A DNA stretch of 43,781 nt, taken from contig CAZHGP010000005.1 of assembly GCA_964532175.1 (NCBI GenBank), positions 1 to 43,781 of the forward strand. The letters run 5' to 3'. Below are positions 29,954 to 43,030 of the stretch, piece after piece (position 1 is the first letter of the stretch; each line of letters begins with the position of its first letter). The DNA comes from an uncultured Nitrososphaeria archaeon (GTDB lineage Archaea > Thermoproteota > Nitrososphaeria_A > Caldarchaeales > JAVZCJ01). The translations under genes were made by a program, and so were the position numbers. A model generated the notes under the pieces. That model saw only the letters and a program-made list of their open reading frames with translations, had not been told where the DNA came from and searched no databases.

Positions 29954-30042
29954 TGGGGCCGGCGAGATTTGAACTCGCGGCTTCGGGAAAATTTTCTCCC
30001 GGTTCCGAGCCGGGTATCATAACCATGCTAGACCACGGCCCC
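29954..30042 (-). tRNA. tRNA-Pro(CGG) with 14-nt non-canonical intron at 45/46 (29982-29995)
   Basis: Acceptor GGGGCCG/CGGCCCC-A; anticodon arm CCCGG-CTCGGAA-CCGGG; T arm GCGAG-TTCAAAT-CTCGC. BHB-type cleavage (helix CGGG/CCCG) restores the variable loop AGGCC and a 75-nt tRNA. Confidence 0.9.
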
Positions 30043-30096
30043 CCATTACGCATATGGAGTAATACTTAAATAAACTAAAAATATATTTCTAAATAT

Positions 30097-30116
30097 AAAA
30101 GTTTAAACAATTGTTT
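30097..30116 (+). promoter_or_regulatory. Candidate BRE/TATA with overlapping 12-bp palindrome upstream of the HTH-NrdD gene
   Basis: AAAAG-TTTAAA overlapping perfect AAACAATTGTTT (30105-30116). Confidence 0.45.
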
Positions 30117-30166
30117 GTTGTTAAAAAAGTTATCTTTTAAATGGTGAAGATAAGGAGGGATAAAAA

Positions 30167-32161
30167 ATAAAAGATTTTCGATTAGAAAAAATCGAAAAAT
30201 CTCAATTTTTAACAAATATTTTAGATGCTTTATCTTCACCTGTAAGATTAAAAATTGTTAAATCATTAAGAAATCAAAATTTAAGTTATACAGATTTAAT
30301 GAAAGCTATTGGTTTATCTAAAAGTCAAGATGCTGGAAAATTTTCTTATCATTTAAAAAAATTATTGAAAACAGGAATAATTACTATTGATAATGAAACA
30401 AAATTATATGCTATAACTCGCTTAGGAGATACTTTATTAAAATTTTTAGAAGAAATAGAAGAAATAGATACTACTCATTTATATGTAAGAAAGTCTCAAT
30501 TTGTAATAGAAGTTTATGATAAAAATAAAATTATAAATGCTTTAGTAAGAGAAGCTGGTGCTCCAGTTTCTTTAGCAAAACAAGTAGCCGATGTAATAGA
30601 TGAAAAAATTAAAAATTTAAAAATAGAATATCTTACAGCACCACTTATTAGAGAAATTGCAAATGCTGTATTAATAGATTTAGGGCATGAAAAATACCGT
30701 CATAAATTAACTAGAGTTGGTTTGCCATTATATGATATTTCAAAATTATTAAATTCAATATCAATAAATGAAATTCATAATATAATAAAAGATACTTCTG
30801 GAGCAGTTTTAAGAGAATATACTTTATTAGAAATTCTTCCAAGAAATGTTGCTGATGCACATTTAGCGGGAAAAATAAATATCGACAATTTAGATTTTTG
30901 GTTAGTAAAACCGTATAGAGCATTTTATTCTTCTAATTTATTAAATAATTTCATTAATGAAAATTTTTCGATCGAGAAATTCTTATTTTATATTAATAAA
31001 GAAACTGAAAAAATTGATTATGAACAATCTATAAATAATTTTTCATCTTTTCTATTAGATTTAAATAAAAATTCTGGAGAACAAAATTTTAAAAAGAATC
31101 TTTATAAAATATTTTATCTTTTATTATCTCAAAGAATAAAAGGAGCTCCTAGATTATTCATTTCTTTAACGGATCAAAATTTTTATGAAAAAATGGATTT
31201 TTTCAAAGAAATAATAGAAACAATTAAAAAAATAAAAAATGAAATTTCAGATAAAATAAATTTTATAGATAAATATAGATTTATGATACCATTCGAAGAA
31301 ATAAAAATAGAAGATGGAATAATAGAAAATATTAATTTAATAGATTTTCTTATTAGAAGGAATGAGAGAAAAGCACTTTATGGTGGAAGCGGTTTCACAA
31401 TATACTCTGGAGAACATGTTTATGGTTCTTTCACAATAAATATTCCAAGAATATTTTATGAAAGTAAAGGGAATGAAGAAAAATTCCATAGCGAAGTTGA
31501 AGAAGTTTTTAAAACATGCTATAAAGGATTTTTAAGTTTAGCTAAAGTATTGATTGATAAAGGTATAAATGAAAAAATTAATTTTTCTATATCCTTAGTA
31601 GGAGTTTATGAAACAATAAAAGCATTAACAAATGGAAATCCTGCTGAAAATAAAGATTCATTGAATTATCTTATTAAATTCTTCAGATGGATTGATACTT
31701 TTACACGTAAAAATTCTTCAAAAAATATAGAAATCCTTCTTTCGTCTACTTCTTCCATAAAACCAATGAAAAGATTTATTTTAAATGATATTCAACAATT
31801 TGGTATTAAAAAAGTTAGTCAAATTGCTTATAAAGGAGAAAATTTAACATATTCAAATTTTATTATACCTGCTGAAGAAGAAATTGATATAGAAAAAAGA
31901 TTAGAAATGGAAGCTATGCTTCATACTTATTTGAGAGGTGGACACTACACAAATATTCCAGTAGATGATATAGAAACAATACAAAAATTTTTTGAAAGGA
32001 AAAATTTATTTTCAAGTTTAGAAATAGTTAGTTTTGGCTACAATTTGTTTTTCTGTGAAAAATGTAAAACTTATAGCCTTTCTAAAAAATGTCCATTATG
32101 CAAATCTGAAAAATTATTAAAATATATTAAAGATGGATCGTATTTTCAATTACCAAACTAG
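30167..32161 (+). CDS. ArsR-type wHTH + ATP-cone + catalytically degenerate class III ribonucleotide reductase (NrdD-like) fusion
   Basis: The frame extends 44 codons upstream of the track start (ILDALSSPVRLKIVKSL, ArsR helices 1-2); ATP cone VRKS..IEVYDKNKI...LTAPLIRE; NrdD-like TRVGLPLYD, ADAHLAGKINI, GGH, CxxC-x8-CxxC; no RxxGY. Start position inferred. Confidence 0.8.
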   Translation: MKDFRLEKIEKSQFLTNILDALSSPVRLKIVKSLRNQNLSYTDLMKAIGLSKSQDAGKFSYHLKKLLKTGIITIDNETKLYAITRLGDTLLKFLEEIEEIDTTHLYVRKSQFVIEVYDKNKIINALVREAGAPVSLAKQVADVIDEKIKNLKIEYLTAPLIREIANAVLIDLGHEKYRHKLTRVGLPLYDISKLLNSISINEIHNIIKDTSGAVLREYTLLEILPRNVADAHLAGKINIDNLDFWLVKPYRAFYSSNLLNNFINENFSIEKFLFYINKETEKIDYEQSINNFSSFLLDLNKNSGEQNFKKNLYKIFYLLLSQRIKGAPRLFISLTDQNFYEKMDFFKEIIETIKKIKNEISDKINFIDKYRFMIPFEEIKIEDGIIENINLIDFLIRRNERKALYGGSGFTIYSGEHVYGSFTINIPRIFYESKGNEEKFHSEVEEVFKTCYKGFLSLAKVLIDKGINEKINFSISLVGVYETIKALTNGNPAENKDSLNYLIKFFRWIDTFTRKNSSKNIEILLSSTSSIKPMKRFILNDIQQFGIKKVSQIAYKGENLTYSNFIIPAEEEIDIEKRLEMEAMLHTYLRGGHYTNIPVDDIETIQKFFERKNLFSSLEIVSFGYNLFFCEKCKTYSLSKKCPLCKSEKLLKYIKDGSYFQLPN

Positions 32162-37059: not shown

Positions 37060-37147
37060 GGGCCGGTCGTCTAGCCTGGTTGGGATAAAAATTCCCAAAA
37101 CCACCCTGACGCGGTGGGGGTCCCCGGTTCAAATCCGGGCCGGCCCA
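37060..37147 (+). tRNA. tRNA-Val(GAC) with 13-nt non-canonical intron at about 25/26 (37087-37099)
   Basis: Acceptor GGGCCGG/CCGGCCC-A; anticodon arm CCACC-CTGACGC-GGTGG; T arm CCCGG-TTCAAAT-CCGGG; BHB-like helix TGGG/CCCA with ATA and AAA bulges; spliced length 75 nt. Confidence 0.9.
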
Positions 37148-37538: not shown

Positions 37539-38519
37539 ATGACTGAACCGTATGAGATTTCAAGAAAAGAAATTGAGATATTAAAAATATTAAGTGAATC
37601 AACAGAACCAATTGGTTCAACATTAATTCGACGAGAACTAGAGAAAAGAGGTTTTTTTCTTAGTGAAAGAACTATAAGATATCATCTTAGATCATTAGAA
37701 TTAAAAGGCTTGGTTTCAGGACATGAAAGAAGTGGAAGAACTATAACTAATAAAGGTTTAGAAGAACTAAGTAGAGCTTTAGTATCTCATAGACTTGGTT
37801 TTATTATTACTCGCTTTTTATCAATGGCTTATTCAGTTACATACGATCCAATTGTAGACTCTGGAATGGTAGTTGCTAATGTCTCAATTATAGATAAATC
37901 TTTCTATGATAAAACCATTGAAACAGTAAACTCTTTGCATAAAACTGGTTTATTATTAGCTCCATATATTAAAGTATTAGATGAAAATGAAGAATATCAA
38001 AACATAGTTGTTCCAGAAGGAAAGATTGCTCTTTTCACAGTTTGTGATTTGACTATAGATGGCGTGCTTATGCATGCTGGAATACCTTTATTCTTTAAAT
38101 ATGGTGGATTAGTTCAAATTGTAAATCATAAGCCAATACGTATTATTGAGTTAATATCATATGAGGGGACAACTATTCCTCCTCTTGAACTTTTTGTTCG
38201 AAGTAATCAAACTTCAATTGTTAAAGTGATGAAAACTGGTTCAGGCGTACTGCCTGCAGCTTTAAGAGAAATTGTTTCTGAAGCAAGAGAAAAAACACTT
38301 AGGATTCTTTCAACATTGAAAGATAGAGGATGGGGCGGTGTTTTAGCTCTAGGCGTTCCAAATGAAGCAATTCTTGGTGTTCCAGTAGCTATGGATAGAT
38401 TTGGTTTATGTATGATAGGTGGCCTTGCTCCAAGTGCAGCTCTTTTAGAAGAAGGTGTAAAAATTGAAACTTTTGCTCCTCATTGCCTAATCCCTCTTGA
38501 AGATATGAAAAGAATATAA
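37539..38519 (+). CDS. nrpR: NrpR-family nitrogen repressor (wHTH + single NRD/DUF128 domain)
   Basis: EILKILSE..PIGS...SERTIRYHL...GRTITNKG; VVANVS, TVCDLTIDGVL, ISYEGTTIPPLE, GGL. Confidence 0.88.
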   Translation: MTEPYEISRKEIEILKILSESTEPIGSTLIRRELEKRGFFLSERTIRYHLRSLELKGLVSGHERSGRTITNKGLEELSRALVSHRLGFIITRFLSMAYSVTYDPIVDSGMVVANVSIIDKSFYDKTIETVNSLHKTGLLLAPYIKVLDENEEYQNIVVPEGKIALFTVCDLTIDGVLMHAGIPLFFKYGGLVQIVNHKPIRIIELISYEGTTIPPLELFVRSNQTSIVKVMKTGSGVLPAALREIVSEAREKTLRILSTLKDRGWGGVLALGVPNEAILGVPVAMDRFGLCMIGGLAPSAALLEEGVKIETFAPHCLIPLEDMKRI

Positions 38520-38539
38520 TTATTGTATATTATGTATTT

Positions 38540-39928
38540 TTAATGTTTATTCATTAAATAATTATTTATTGATGTAGCTGCCCTTTTTCCAGCTTCTATA
38601 GCTTTTATTACAGTTGCTGCACCACTAACTACATCACCACCAGCAAAAATTCCATTAGAGGCTTCTAAAGTTTCTGGGTCAACAATTATAGTTTTTTGTT
38701 TATTTGAGATTCTAATATTTCTCGAGGTATTTGTTGCTGCTATAGTGTTTGGTATATGTTCCGTTGCTATGATAACAGTCTCAGCATTATAGAATATTCT
38801 TGAACTTTCTTCTGGGATTAGTTTAGGTTTACCAGTTCTACTGTTTACTACTTGCTTTAATCTTATAAGTTCAACTTGTTCTACCCATCTTTTTTCATTT
38901 CCGATCAATCTTATTGGCTTAATTAATGATTGAAGTTTTACACCTTCTTCTATTCCACGCCTAATATCATCTACTCTCCCTACAATTTTCCTTTGATAAA
39001 ATATGGAAACTTCTTCTGCTCCTAATCTAAGAGCACATCTAGCAGCATCCATTCCTCTAGCACCTAATACTGCAACTTTGCCTCTAACTTTAATTGGAGT
39101 TTTACTTTTATATGGAAAAGTATATGCATTCATTAAATTTATTCTAATAAGAAACTCGTTTAAAGAATAAACTCCACATAGATTTTCACCTGGAATTCCT
39201 AAAAGTTTAGGCAATCCTGCTCCTGTGCCTAGAAAAATAGCATCAAATCCTTCATCAAAAAGGTCATCTATAGTTAAAGTTTTTCCTATAATAATATTCG
39301 TCTTTATTTCAACTCCAATTTTCTTAATATACTCAATCTCTTGTCTAACAATTTTTTTTGGCAAACGAAATTCTGGTATACCATAAATTAATACTCCTCC
39401 TGCTTCATGCAATGCTTCAAAAATGACTATATGATGACCCATTTTCGCTAATTCTGTAGCTACACTTAAGCCTGCAGGACCACTACCAACGATTGCTACA
39501 CTTTTTCCAGTAAATTTAGGAATATCTGGAATTTTTATTCCTTTTTCCAGATTCCAATCAGCAATGAACCTTTCAAGAGCTCCTATATTAATTGGATCAC
39601 CTATAGTATTCTTACATCCCATAACGCATAATTTTTCTTGTGGGCACACTCTCCCACAGATTGATGGTAAACAATTCTTCTCGCGAATTTTCTCATTAGC
39701 TTCTTCATAAGCACCTTTTCTAATGAGTTTTATGAAGTTTTTTATATCTATATGAAGTGGGCACATCTCTATACATAATGGATTCTCACATTGAAGACAT
39801 CTAGATGCTTCAGCCAATGCTTGTTCTTCACTATATCCTAAAGCTACTTCACTAAAAGTTTTTAAACGTTCTTCTATAGATAATTCTGACATCGGGACTC
39901 TTTTTAATCTAATATCTAAAATTTGCAT
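38540..39928 (-). CDS. NfnB/SudA/GltD-family flavoprotein with degenerate NADP(H)-binding loop
   Basis: EASRCLQC..PLC..MCP, CGRVCPQEKLC, GSGPAG, YGIPEFRLPK, FAGGDVV; second Rossmann loop reads VLGARGMDAAR. Confidence 0.88.
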   Translation of the reverse strand: MQILDIRLKRVPMSELSIEERLKTFSEVALGYSEEQALAEASRCLQCENPLCIEMCPLHIDIKNFIKLIRKGAYEEANEKIREKNCLPSICGRVCPQEKLCVMGCKNTIGDPINIGALERFIADWNLEKGIKIPDIPKFTGKSVAIVGSGPAGLSVATELAKMGHHIVIFEALHEAGGVLIYGIPEFRLPKKIVRQEIEYIKKIGVEIKTNIIIGKTLTIDDLFDEGFDAIFLGTGAGLPKLLGIPGENLCGVYSLNEFLIRINLMNAYTFPYKSKTPIKVRGKVAVLGARGMDAARCALRLGAEEVSIFYQRKIVGRVDDIRRGIEEGVKLQSLIKPIRLIGNEKRWVEQVELIRLKQVVNSRTGKPKLIPEESSRIFYNAETVIIATEHIPNTIAATNTSRNIRISNKQKTIIVDPETLEASNGIFAGGDVVSGAATVIKAIEAGKRAATSINNYLMNKH

Positions 39929-40762
39929 TTAAATTTCCCTCATAATTTTTAGAGCAGCTTTCTCCTCTTCATCATACATATGGATTCTTGCTTTAAACTC
40001 TTCAAAATCTACAAGATGAGCATCAAAATCTGGGCCATCTATACATACAAACTTAGGTTTTCCATCAATGGTTACTCGACAGCATCCACACATACCTGTA
40101 CCATCAATCATTAAAGAGTTAAGACTAACAATTGTTTTAATCTTATAAGGTCTTGTAATATCTGAAATATTTTTCATCAATGTTGCTGCTCCCACAGCAT
40201 ATACCAAATCGAATCTTTCATTCGATTCAAGCAATTTTTTAAGAACATCACCAGCATATCCCTTAATTCCTTCAGAACCATCATCAGTAACTATGTAAAA
40301 ACTATCACTCAATTTCTCAAATTCTTCCTTGTAAATTAAGAATTTTGATGTTCGTGCACTTATAATGGTTGTTATATTATTACCAACTTCTTTTAGTTTT
40401 TTTGCTCTTTCATAAGCTGCTGCAATTGCTACTCCTCTACCAACAATGCATACTTTTCCATATAATGCTATTTCACTTGGTTTTCCTAAAGGACCTACTA
40501 AATCATGGATTACATCTCCAACTTCTAATCTTCCAAGCTCTCTTGTTGATGCCCCAACTTCTTTAAAGACCAATGTTATCGTTCCTTCTTTAGGATCCCA
40601 ATCTATGAGTGTTAAAGGGATTCTTTCACCATCCTCACTCACTCTTAAAATTACAAACTGTCCAGACTTAGTTTTCTTAGCAATCAATGGTGCTCTAACT
40701 TTTATAGTCTTAACTCCTGGAGCTATTTCTTTTTTAAAGATTATTTCATTCTCCATTTTCAT
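39929..40762 (-). CDS. NfnA/SudB-family FAD/[2Fe-2S] subunit
   Basis: GQFVILRV..GERIPLT, GPLGKP, TDDGS, MIDGTGMCGCCRV, CIDGPDF. Confidence 0.9.
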   Translation of the reverse strand: MKMENEIIFKKEIAPGVKTIKVRAPLIAKKTKSGQFVILRVSEDGERIPLTLIDWDPKEGTITLVFKEVGASTRELGRLEVGDVIHDLVGPLGKPSEIALYGKVCIVGRGVAIAAAYERAKKLKEVGNNITTIISARTSKFLIYKEEFEKLSDSFYIVTDDGSEGIKGYAGDVLKKLLESNERFDLVYAVGAATLMKNISDITRPYKIKTIVSLNSLMIDGTGMCGCCRVTIDGKPKFVCIDGPDFDAHLVDFEEFKARIHMYDEEEKAALKIMREI

Positions 40763-40773
40763 TTAGCTCCTAC

Positions 40774-41412
40774 TTATTTTCTGTAAAGACCTACTGAAAT
40801 TGCTTTAATAATTTCTTCAGGTTTTTTTCCAAAGTAAATCATATCCAAGAAAGCTTTTTTCAAATCTGTTCTCTCATTATAAAGATTAAATCTTTCTAGA
40901 GCAATATCCAGGATTTCTGATATGATAGGCATTTTTTGTTTATAAATCCTTCTTGCAATATTCCAGCATTTGCAGAAATTAGAGTAGTCCAATCCTAGAT
41001 TAAAATATTCTGCTAATATTGCATATACAATTTCTTGATTTGAAAGTTTCTTAAAAAAACGTTTCTCAAAGTATCCTTTTATCTCTTCATTTTTGCTAAT
41101 GCTATAAAGATAACTCCAATAAATGTAATTGTAGAATATATCTGTAGTTCTATCTTGAAAGTCTGGACAACTAATACCTGGGTTATGTCCTTTAGCACAG
41201 ACTATATTACCATCTATATCTCTCCTATCTTCAAAGTTTTTGCACTCGATACAGAATCTTGTCTTAGATGCTGTATTTCTTACGCCTTCAAACTTATCTT
41301 GAAAATCTGGACAACTAACGCCGGGATTATGATTTTTAGCACAGACTATATTACCATCTACTTCCATTCGGTCTTCGAAATTTTTACATTCAAGACAGAA
41401 TCTTAAAAACAA
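40774..41412 (-). CDS. Uncharacterized protein with two tandem 4-Cys repeats and a helical C-terminal domain
   Basis: RFC.ECKNFEDR...DGNIVCAK.HNPG.SCPDFQD occurs twice; lies within the operon. Confidence 0.8.
   Translation of the reverse strand: MFLRFCLECKNFEDRMEVDGNIVCAKNHNPGVSCPDFQDKFEGVRNTASKTRFCIECKNFEDRRDIDGNIVCAKGHNPGISCPDFQDRTTDIFYNYIYWSYLYSISKNEEIKGYFEKRFFKKLSNQEIVYAILAEYFNLGLDYSNFCKCWNIARRIYKQKMPIISEILDIALERFNLYNERTDLKKAFLDMIYFGKKPEEIIKAISVGLYRK
41152..41403 (-). repeat. Intragenic tandem duplication (two 108-bp units, 144-bp period)
   Basis: aa 4-39 (41403-41296) and aa 52-87 (41259-41152) are near-identical in protein and DNA. Confidence 0.9.
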
Positions 41413-41422
41413 ATCTCATCAC

Positions 41423-43030
41423 TTATGATAGCATATTTTCCAAAATATTATCTGCTCCTTCAATTAATGGTATACCAGTTACTTTTGCAGCTCTTTCAGA
41501 TAATGCTACTAGATCATGCCTATCGAGCAAATTAAGTTTCCACTTTCTTGCTCCGGCCATTAATTGTTGTAAGCCAACCTTAATTCTATCCATGTATGTG
41601 TATAATCCAATGGCTCCCCAAGGTATATCTTTAAATTTCTCATGAAAAATTGCTTTTAGATCAGGAACGCTTATGAAAAATTTTTCTGGTGAATCACCAA
41701 AGAGTTCTTCAAAGTACTTTGGCAATAACCCTTTTCCAGCTAGTTCAGCAAAATAAGTTGATTTCATTACAGCAGTTAATGGTGCTCTACCCATTAATAT
41801 AGCTTTTACGTATGGCCCATTACCAAAATTGCTCATAGCAATAGCTTTAAATATTTGTGTTTCATCTATGAAACCTCCAGCAATTACTATATCTGGTACA
41901 TACCTCCCTTTTTTATTAAGAAGTACTGCACATTTTAATACTTGAGCTTCAAGATAAACTGTTGGTGTACCCATTTCATTCATCATTGGCACAGGACTCA
42001 TTCCAGTACCACCACCAGCACCATCAAAAACTACATAATCAATTTTTGCTTCTGAAGCAACTTTCATTGTAAAAGCTACTGCTTCTGGACTATAAGCTCC
42101 AGTTTTCAAGCTCACTTTTTTAGCACCTTGTTCTCTTAACCATTCTATATCTTCAATGAAGTTTTTCTCTTTTGGCATACCAACTCGACTATGTCTCTCA
42201 AAAGTCCTAAAAACACCTTGTTTATAAGCCTCTTGAACATTTTTATCTTCTGGATCTGGTATAACGATATAGCCTCTTTTCTTTAAGAGAATTGCTTTTT
42301 CTAGATCATTTATTCTAACTTCTCCTCCAATTGCTTTTGCTCCTTGACCCCATTTTCTTTCTATAACATTTACTTCAAGTTTAGAAATTGCATAGATATC
42401 TACTCCTAGTCTTTGATCCTCAACATTTGTTTGAACTGCAATATTTCCATATTTTCCATCCCAAAATTTTCGAAATGCTTCAACTCTCCTTTTCAATTCT
42501 GGCGAATGAGTAACTTTTCCATTCTCAATCTTTGCTTCAGGATCCATTCCACAAACATTTTCTCCTATGGTAACTATTATTCCAGATAAAGCTCCACCAA
42601 TTGCTAATCCATCCCAATTTACTTTAGCTACATCTGTAGAACCATAAGCACCTATCATGACTGGTATTTTAAGAGGGATACCCCCAACATTTGTTTCTAT
42701 ATTTACATTTGGAAAAATTGCAATATCAGAATCTTCATCTATACCCATAGTGCCTAAAAGTCTAGATTGAATATTAAAATGAGACCAATCTAAACCATAA
42801 TCTTTTAAAGCTCCTGCTGTGCTATTTCCAAACATGCTAGGATCTGGATAAAGTGCTTCTCTTCCTCTGAATGCAGATAATGAAACTTGACATAGAAATG
42901 GGCATTCCTTAATACATAATGGACATAAACCGCTAGTTGGGCAAACATCCTCAACCCTAGTTTTAGTTCTGGTTGTAGACATAGAATTTAAATATGAAGA
43001 ATTCTTATGAATAGGATTAGGCATAATCAA
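41423..43030 (-). CDS. Stand-alone FMN-binding glutamate synthase domain protein (GltB2-like)
   Basis: ERKWGQGAKAIGGE, FDGAGGGTGMSP, IAGG, MGRAP; N-terminal Cys cluster CPTSGLCPLCIKECPFLC. Confidence 0.87.
   Translation of the reverse strand: MIMPNPIHKNSSYLNSMSTTRTKTRVEDVCPTSGLCPLCIKECPFLCQVSLSAFRGREALYPDPSMFGNSTAGALKDYGLDWSHFNIQSRLLGTMGIDEDSDIAIFPNVNIETNVGGIPLKIPVMIGAYGSTDVAKVNWDGLAIGGALSGIIVTIGENVCGMDPEAKIENGKVTHSPELKRRVEAFRKFWDGKYGNIAVQTNVEDQRLGVDIYAISKLEVNVIERKWGQGAKAIGGEVRINDLEKAILLKKRGYIVIPDPEDKNVQEAYKQGVFRTFERHSRVGMPKEKNFIEDIEWLREQGAKKVSLKTGAYSPEAVAFTMKVASEAKIDYVVFDGAGGGTGMSPVPMMNEMGTPTVYLEAQVLKCAVLLNKKGRYVPDIVIAGGFIDETQIFKAIAMSNFGNGPYVKAILMGRAPLTAVMKSTYFAELAGKGLLPKYFEELFGDSPEKFFISVPDLKAIFHEKFKDIPWGAIGLYTYMDRIKVGLQQLMAGARKWKLNLLDRHDLVALSERAAKVTGIPLIEGADNILENMLS

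Follow-up and report, generated by a model that had tools for sequence, protein, structure and literature searches.

A winged-helix protein descended from class III ribonucleotide reductase as a probable nucleotide-sensing regulator in archaea of the Thermoproteota

The gene described here encodes a 665-residue protein (P0001), read from positions 30164-32158 of the + strand of a DNA stretch of 43,781 nucleotides (nt) from an uncultured Nitrososphaeria archaeon of the Caldarchaeales (contig CAZHGP010000005.1 of assembly GCA_964532175.1); this whole stretch is called the window hereafter. The protein joins an N-terminal ArsR-type winged helix, an ATP-cone and a body resembling NrdD, the class III ribonucleotide reductase (RNR), and, judged from its residues, it is catalytically dead as an RNR, having neither of the two active-site Cys nor the radical Gly, and no NxN flap or HxHD motif. 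It is fairly probable that the gene encodes a transcription regulator derived from class III RNR, which senses nucleotides and couples their occupancy to the geometry of the winged helix. The gene is not a one-off of its organism, that is, it is one member of a phylum-wide family.

The three parts of the architecture, which a first-pass annotation had read from the letters and the open reading frames of this DNA, are borne out by Pfam matches and by the predicted fold. The N-terminal 100 residues match the models HTH_5 (residues 25-73, E 1.8e-8), DUF7347 (residues 20-90, E 9.4e-8) and HTH_20 and the solved proteins NolR (E 3.6e-4) and NmtR (E 4.5e-4), and HTH_5 and DUF7347 together with the secondary structure of the model place an ArsR-type winged helix-turn-helix at residues ~12-102 (30197..30469, + strand), in which DAGKFSYHLKKL is the probable recognition helix. 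The ATP-cone follows at residues 107-178 (30482..30697, + strand), with a conserved linker onward to ~190, and scores 29.5 bits in a six-frame search of the genome, above the cut-off of its model. Winged helix and cone are the best-conserved regions of the family: the recognition helix is almost invariant family-wide, and the invariant residues are G58, F60, H63, Y82 and G88 in the winged helix and V108, R109, E116, I123, Y156, L157, R163, E164, R179, H180, R184, G186 and P188 in the cone and linker. The conserved blocks DAGKFxYHLKKL and YLTAPLIRE are both present in the window protein, which has the three-part architecture of the family.

After the linker comes an NrdD-like α/β barrel with an eroded active site (residues ~200-625, 30761..32038, + strand), followed by a Cys4 zinc ribbon (C631, C634, C643 and C646, 32054..32101, + strand) and by a vestigial glycyl-radical loop, KYIKDGSYFQLPN, with which the protein ends at the stop codon (32111..32161, + strand). 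The Pfam NRDD model matches residues 413-650 (E 2e-21), covering only positions 272-531 of its 562, and the NCBIfam equivalog model for NrdD gives 77.1 bits, below its cut-off of 326.35. An AlphaFold2 model made from a 34-row alignment (mean predicted local distance difference test, pLDDT, 84.7; predicted template modelling score, pTM, 0.73) was compared with solved structures by Foldseek, and class III RNRs, including those of S. thermophilus, P. copri, T. maritima and phage T4, make up all listed matches to rank 35 (E 1.9e-19 to 2.6e-12, template modelling scores 0.49-0.62), class I RNRs appearing from rank 37 on. Model and Foldseek matches thus support a ten-stranded α/β barrel of the RNR and pyruvate formate-lyase (PFL) type in the window protein.

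The loss of catalytic residues was followed in an alignment of two sets, the roles of the residues being taken from the NrdD of P. copri as reported in the available part of that work (PMC11226230). The family set (n = 113) holds the 116 matches of a protein search and P0001, minus the truncated duplicate P0002 and the true NrdDs P0114, P0116 and P0117; the set of true NrdDs (n = 14) holds P0114, P0116 and 12 of the 16 NrdD genes that adjoin family members, all longer than 650 residues, the intein-bearing P0117 being excluded. The Cys on the first barrel strand is present in all 14 true NrdDs and in none of the 113 family members, and is R252 in the window protein. The finger-loop Cys (14/14 against 7/113) falls at F411 of the window protein (S409 in the first alignment), whose loop, GGSGFTIYSGE, has no Cys. 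The radical Gly (14/14 against 7/113) is replaced by S659, and it is this residue, not G658, that falls in the Gly column of the true NrdDs; S659 is constant in the close orthologues, while the adjacent G658 varies (G, G, V, S, E). The NxN flap, conserved in true NrdDs, is found in 0% of the family and is deleted in the window protein, HxHD is NIDN, and the second His of that motif, again conserved in true NrdDs, occurs in 0% of 59 long and 6% of 51 short family members. The loss of the radical Gly and of the catalytic Cys, claimed at first sight of the sequence, is therefore confirmed, and relatives do not generally keep these residues either; likewise correct was the count of five cysteines, of which KTCYK holds one and the zinc ribbon the other four.

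The erosion is uneven along the protein. For the 151 columns each shared by at least 13 of the 14 true NrdDs, retention in the window protein is 15 of 20 across cone and linker, 24 of 112 across the barrel and 5 of 19 across zinc ribbon and tail. The four zinc-ribbon Cys align to the four Cys of true NrdDs and are retained in 59 of the 113 family members, the remaining 54 being without the entire C-terminal part. Unlike the active site, the core helices after the cone (EY.LL..LPR.VADAHL.G, residues 218-236) are retained from true NrdDs, and L222, P226, D231, H233 and G236 are kept in 39-100% of members, depending on the length class. One subclade (P0092, P0104, P0107, P0110 and P0111) has a finger-loop Cys (SSDGCMFV) and a tail Gly (KYAGRL) without the first-strand Cys, and may represent a transitional form.

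The protein might be a non-canonical radical enzyme in which Ser, Ala or Thr takes over from the radical Gly, as happens in aminoacyl radical enzymes: PFL-branch enzymes with such exchanges are known (PMC11528403), and the Gly column of the 113 family members holds A in 15, S in 13 and T in 5 (N in a further 5). However, the substituted enzymes of the PFL branch keep the catalytic Cys according to the same source, whose accessible part reports only the canonical Gly for the class III RNRs of IPR012833 (PMC11528403), whereas the window protein has lost both Cys, the NxN flap and HxHD. Besides, the Gly column is a gap in 61 of the 113 members, the zinc-ribbon Cys are missing in 54, and no activase is found: the first-pass annotation had noted no nrdG nearby, and this extends to the whole genome, in which nothing reaches the cut-offs for NrdG (best 56.5 bits against 131 for TIGR02495 and 28 against 126 for TIGR02491). 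A radical enzyme of this kind is thus very improbable and close to refuted.

Equally, the gene is not decaying but under purifying selection. The ratio of non-synonymous to synonymous substitution rates (dN/dS) was computed against two metagenome orthologues, at loci L088 (92% amino acid identity over the aligned length) and L089 (97%), and is 0.215 and 0.103, respectively, for the whole protein, 0.218 and 0.105 for the barrel, 0.085 and 0.037 for the cone and 0.143 and 0.047 for the winged helix; the C-terminal 40 codons, with few sites, are the least constrained (0.35 and 0.60). Pseudogene decay, or the misreading of an ordinary NrdD, could be suspected from the low scores with NrdD models and from the lack of a canonical start codon 5' of the winged helix, but the 665-codon frame is unbroken in five genus members, dN/dS of 0.10-0.22 indicates that selection maintains the frame, and hundreds of species carry the gene, so that this explanation is refuted by the selection and conservation data.

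The start codon needs comment. The frame is open between TAA 30161-30163 and TAA 32159-32161 (+ strand), and its first ATG, GTG or TTG is the ATG at 30299, from which a mechanical list of open reading frames gives a product of 620 residues; this version would split the winged helix, the 45 preceding codons encoding its first half. The amino acids of these 45 codons are conserved family-wide, and the codons show 2 synonymous and 1 non-synonymous changes against L088 and 2 and 0 against L089. Codon 30167, given as the start in the first-pass annotation, is ATA. It lies within the string of in-frame stop TAA 30161-63, AAA and ATA (30161..30169, + strand), 8 nt 3' of a Shine-Dalgarno-like GGAGGG (30154..30159, + strand), which is conserved in L088, L089 and the congeneric genome G333 and reads GGGGGG in another congener, G130. 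A stop (TAA or TAG) followed by AAR ATA AAA GAY stands in all five genus members, namely the window gene, L088, L089, G333 and G130. In P0006 (76% identical) the N-terminus MEGKKIKD lies at the homologous position, relative to which the Met codon is AAG in the window and one Lys codon has become a stop. Translation therefore probably begins at a non-canonical, genus-conserved codon, ATA 30167-69, the only type of start that would preserve the winged helix. The source gene callers cut P0002 and P0004 at the ATG and placed the starts of P0003 and P0005 at the I19 codon. A short reading frame that lies upstream and overlaps the ATA was also considered and discarded, as it is not conserved in L088 or G333.

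The family to which the window protein belongs is large and, among named sources, archaeal. A search of 5.8 billion proteins gave 116 matches, the named ones all from archaeal metagenome bins or unassigned bins, which fall into two size classes (~570-650 and ~680-770 residues) and, with few exceptions, have an ATP-cone together with DUF7347 or HTH_5; within alignment A1, identities between the window protein and the 33 other members range from 25 to 91%. Searching GTDB species genomes with sequence patterns derived from the two conserved blocks revealed a relative in at least 581 of them (581 of 593 pattern-matched stretches). The 80 loci kept for study are mostly from Bathyarchaeia, with some from Nitrososphaeria and Caldarchaeales and one from Methanosuratincola. 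When the N-terminal 235 residues (winged helix and cone) were searched against 401 evenly sampled genomes of the phylum, 291 had matches at E <= 1e-5, of which the weakest (E 1e-6 to 1e-9) may be cones of ordinary RNRs; among the high-quality sampled genomes, the figure is 237 of 334. Among shorter proteins no stand-alone winged helix with a cone was found, the 14 matches including 6 source-labelled partial and several others on contigs of 1-3 kb. In a protein atlas, similar clusters with scores of 0.84-0.87 appear in Promethearchaeota and Nanobdellota and serve as leads only. A FastTree phylogeny, made without the winged-helix columns from the 14 true NrdDs and 55 rows of the 113-member family set (P0001 and alternate rows among those of 540 residues or more), separates the family from the true NrdDs by one branch with Shimodaira-Hasegawa-like support of 100; this fits a single origin of the family, in a tree with a small sample of true NrdDs and some long branches.

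The family is also found in genomes that lack a class III RNR. True NrdD exceeds the model cut-off in 192 of the same 401 genomes, and in the families f1 (3/3), f2 (17/17), f3 (25/25) and f5 (56/56) every one of the 101 sampled genomes carries the winged-helix protein while true NrdD occurs in 0, 0, 4 and 0 of them, respectively (4/101), so that at least 97 sampled genomes have the winged-helix protein without class III RNR. In closed genomes of f5 and f58 the longest frames, of 719 and 689 residues, end right after the zinc ribbon without a radical domain. The genome of the window (1.47 Mb in 104 contigs, 97% complete) has no second NrdD elsewhere, no NrdB-type small subunit and no match to TIGR00244, the model for NrdR. 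Its sole RNR is encoded at locus L126 (contig C43:652-5796), where a frame of 1714 residues, starting at a TTG downstream of GAGGAG, combines a large subunit of the PF02867 type with an ATP-cone and two inteins (Intein_splicing x2, LAGLIDADG_3 x2); the enzyme is most likely of class II. ATP-cones thus number two in the genome, one in this RNR and one in the window protein. In the congener G333, locus L123 (contig C15) has a second RNR-type frame bearing an ATP-cone, which is absent from the window genome. Above the cut-off, NrdR was detected in 24 of the 401 sampled genomes, all of them in one archaeal family, f15, and in G148 (contig C2:113579-116100) and several other f15 genomes a bacterial-type NrdR gene lies ~400-900 bp from a true nrdD.

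The neighbours of the gene in relatives fit a regulator of nucleotide supply and support that reading. In the 80 loci, open reading frames (ORFs) were called crudely, the three on each side were clustered by BLASTP and representatives were named with Pfam; 6 of the loci have no downstream ORF on the contig. The genes pyrB or pyrI, for the catalytic and the regulatory chain of aspartate carbamoyltransferase, lie within three ORFs in 42 of the 80 loci, 16 have a true nrdD (482 bits over the full profile) downstream in the same orientation and within three ORFs, with a glutaredoxin gene between family gene and nrdD in 10, and nrdD or pyrB/pyrI is within three ORFs in 53, counts which are descriptive and not independent, the loci being mutually related and mostly from Bathyarchaeia. 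Furthermore, pyrB is divergent from the family gene in three Caldarchaeales loci (L009-L011), and in one locus (L084) a class I/II-type RNR stands directly downstream.

Promoter elements in Bathyarchaeia point in the same direction, to autoregulation and control of nrdD, as a lead rather than as proof. All 14 exact copies of TAATTTTTTAAAC in 1.03 Mb of loci lie upstream of a family gene, as do 9 of the 20 copies with one mismatch. The Bathyarchaeial operons of glutaredoxin gene (grx) and nrdD share a 19-nt element with the consensus TATACAGAATTTTATACTA, ~70-100 nt 5' of the called grx start and followed by a second TATA-like box, CTAAAAAATTAAATA; loci with this element include L028, L029, L034, L044, L062, L069, L072 and L074, and three further unbiased matches lie just 3' of the family gene at contig ends. 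We know of no factor for this 19-nt element. A matrix built from 11 of 15 listed sites (L017, L042, L053 and L061, with at least 5 mismatches to the seed, being excluded) gives the upstream regions of family genes higher scores than it gives those of other genes (n = 62 against 464, the rows being kin; Mann-Whitney p 8.6e-6), and 9 bits or more are reached in 5 of 62 of the family's own promoters against 8 of 464 others (Fisher p 0.012) and in 0 of 45 upstream regions of pyrB or pyrI. Matches of TAATTTTTGAAAC inside pyrI were discarded as sites, since they read as the coding sequence of a conserved V-x-K-I stretch.

In the genus of the window itself, the operator proposed by the first-pass annotation is not supported. 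The palindrome AAACAATTGTTT (30105..30116) lies just 3' of a TATA-like TAAATATAAAAG (30090-30101) and overlaps TTTAAAC, and it was a candidate operator for the gene's own promoter; together with ~55 nt around it, it is identical or nearly so in L088 (where the upstream gene context differs), L089 and G333. The window genome has 6 exact copies, where a hand estimate from base composition expects ~1, and the five others comprise four inside genes, one of which is the RNR gene, and one between a GTPase gene and a protease-like gene, as read from their translations. As a motif of a regulon it was rejected, four copies being intragenic and the sole other intergenic copy unrelated to nucleotide metabolism, and an operator role for it is not supported beyond that of a candidate. 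Paired sites resembling NrdR boxes were likewise not seen in the RNR promoter block that the genus conserves.

A number of observations weigh against the reading of the family as a nucleotide-sensing regulator of nucleotide supply. In G130, a genome of the same genus whose protein has 95% identity in its N-terminal part, the sequence on either side is retained but a 25-nt block containing AAACAATTGTTT is replaced. A 105-nt block conserved 5' of the RNR gene in three genus genomes has nothing resembling AAACAATTGTTT and no motif in common with the gene's own promoter, and the same holds for the upstream region of pyrI, that of pyrB being truncated by a contig end; no regulon was found. In Bathyarchaeia, the part shared by promoters, a T-rich run and TAWAC, may be mostly TATA box. 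In the lineage of the window, the genes near it are the housekeeping genes for tRNA-Pro, NAC, threonine synthase and an HflX-like GTPase, besides a metallophosphoesterase and a SWIM-type gene, and are uninformative on function. The cone (PF03477, residues 107-178, E 3.7e-5) reaches 24.6 bits in hmmscan against a cut-off of 25.8, and a sequence search of the cone alone against solved structures returned designed helical repeat proteins only, which gave no mapping of its ligand residues. In f15 the winged-helix protein (25/25) occurs together with NrdR (24/25), so the family is not simply a stand-in for NrdR. The kinship of the 80 loci and the weak tail of the 291 matches, mentioned above, belong here too, and DNA binding, ligand, targets and the positive or negative sign of regulation are all things that we infer. 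Of the proposal that the protein is an independently evolved archaeal analogue of NrdR, the architecture, the dead active site, the lack of an activase above cut-off, the purifying selection, the absence of NrdR from the genome and the nrdD, glutaredoxin and pyrBI neighbours in relatives are supported, and the AAACAATTGTTT operator, a regulon and a motif shared with the RNR and pyrI promoters are not.

The main rival shares the dead RNR body and the DNA binding but assigns other signals or targets, as in an ArsR-kind sensor of redox state, metal or stress or in a factor of chromatin or replication. It draws on the match of the winged helix to ArsR-type models, on the absence of nucleotide genes from the neighbourhood of the window gene, on the failure to find an RNR-linked operator in the genus and on the co-existence with NrdR in f15. 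Yet conservation within the family is highest in the cone and linker, those 53 of 80 loci have nrdD, a glutaredoxin gene or pyrBI as a neighbour, and the ArsR metalloregulator model NF033788 gives 34.6 bits, below its cut-off of 55. We regard this rival as unlikely.

For the nucleotide-sensing regulator, the following mechanism may be proposed. A paralogue of NrdD would have acquired a winged helix of the ArsR type at its N-terminus and shed the radical chemistry, and would still have the ATP-cone, the barrel scaffold with the core helices that come first and, in the clade of the window, the zinc ribbon. The NrdD-like body would join two or more subunits, as RNR dimers do, so that paired winged helices face DNA; ATP or dATP in the cone would alter the oligomeric state or the arrangement of domains and thereby DNA binding, perhaps with a contribution from a deoxynucleoside triphosphate (dNTP) bound to the helix block that is retained behind the cone. 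In class III RNRs these first core helices make up the dimer interface and the effector site. The dead barrel would be a scaffold for oligomerisation and for transmission of the signal, linking nucleotide occupancy to winged-helix geometry, a proposal made by analogy with two systems: in the P. copri NrdD, dATP in the cone moves dimers toward tetramers and disorders distant parts, as described in part of PMC11226230, and in NrdR the nucleotides in the cone determine the oligomer and DNA binding, as described in part of PMC9110341. The targets would probably be the genes for RNR, glutaredoxin and pyrBI, that is, deoxynucleotide and pyrimidine supply, and the gene's own promoter.

The same retained helices (L222, P226, D231, H233 and G236) could also be taken to mean that the protein is not a transcription factor at all but works with the real RNR or the replication machinery, as a scaffold or a regulatory partner, with the winged helix used for protein contacts or general nucleoid binding, and the purifying selection on the entire barrel goes beyond the apparent need of a mere dimerisation module. 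The near-invariance of the ArsR-type recognition helix in the family and the occurrence of the family alongside class II-type and class III RNRs alike make this improbable.

In its widest form the proposal becomes tentative: the family would be the main regulator of deoxynucleotide and pyrimidine supply in the Thermoproteota and perhaps in other archaea (Asgard and DPANN being leads), reading ATP and dATP through the cone and dNTPs through the effector helices, controlling RNR, glutaredoxin, pyrBI and itself, and filling the place of NrdR even where there is no class III RNR. We hold this to be possible rather than probable.

Regulators with partial likeness are known. NrdR, which is rare in archaea according to the available parts of two reports (PMC9110341, PMC12176259), also joins a DNA-binding domain to an ATP-cone, and by analogy its logic, ATP or dATP in the cone setting oligomer and DNA binding at RNR genes, is presumed to be the same; however, the DNA-binding domain of the window family is an ArsR-type winged helix instead of an N-terminal zinc ribbon, an NrdD-like barrel of ~450 residues follows the cone, and the cone descends from that of NrdD itself. 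NrdD has the ATP-cone, linker and zinc ribbon in common with the window protein, and also the barrel fold (solved NrdDs are matched by Foldseek at E 1.9e-19 to 1e-12), but differs by having no winged helix, by possessing both Cys, radical Gly, NxN flap and HxHD, by scoring above the equivalog cut-off (77 against 326 bits for the window protein) and by the partner NrdG, of which the genome has none above cut-off. The ArsR/SmtB proteins resemble the N-terminal 100 residues through their HTH_5-type winged helix, but their sensor is a metal site in the dimer whereas that of the window protein would be an RNR remnant of 560 residues, and the winged helix of the latter also matches DUF7347 and is below the metalloregulator cut-off. 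MocR/GabR regulators consist of a winged helix and an aminotransferase-like domain and thus follow the same design, in which an enzyme fold with altered catalysis is attached to a DNA-binding domain and provides ligand sensing and dimerisation; the fold in the window protein is a ten-stranded RNR barrel, and ligand class and archaeal range differ.

In the main text of openly available papers, those on RNR and NrdR included, searches met with no account of DUF7347, of NrdD in Bathyarchaeota or of a fusion between a winged helix and either an ATP-cone or NrdD, and so, as far as searched, there is no published description of such a protein, which would join the ATP-cone regulators (NrdR) and the enzyme-fold regulators. 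To our knowledge, how archaea match dNTP synthesis to need is largely unknown. If the reading as a nucleotide-sensing regulator is true, the family would be a second, independent wiring of an ATP-cone to DNA binding, the first RNR catalytic subunit reused as a transcription factor as far as the searches show, and a clear example of a pseudoenzyme retained as a sensor. Besides, many relatives carry the source label "anaerobic ribonucleoside-triphosphate reductase", and many genomes would need re-annotation: with the enzyme label, metabolic reconstructions may assign a class III RNR to organisms which lack one, and 97 of the 101 genomes of f1, f2, f3 and f5 have the winged-helix protein without true NrdD.

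Directly upstream of the gene lies a tRNA-Pro(CGG) call on the opposite strand (29954-30042, - strand, 89 nt), long enough for an intron. An opposite-strand tRNA-Pro within 220 nt upstream of the family gene occurs in 17 of 81 regions, a synteny across distant lineages that is absent in L088; in a search for inverted repeats in the 81 upstream regions, the top matches were the stems of this tRNA gene (17 regions) and were set aside as not being operators. Elsewhere in the window, ARAGORN called a tRNA-Phe of 88 nt at 37060-37147 (+ strand) with the anticodon AAA at position 29, and its length and the odd position of the anticodon suggest a misread intron-bearing tRNA. The guanine + cytosine (GC) fraction is 0.33 in positions 38001-42000 and ~0.25 elsewhere in the window.

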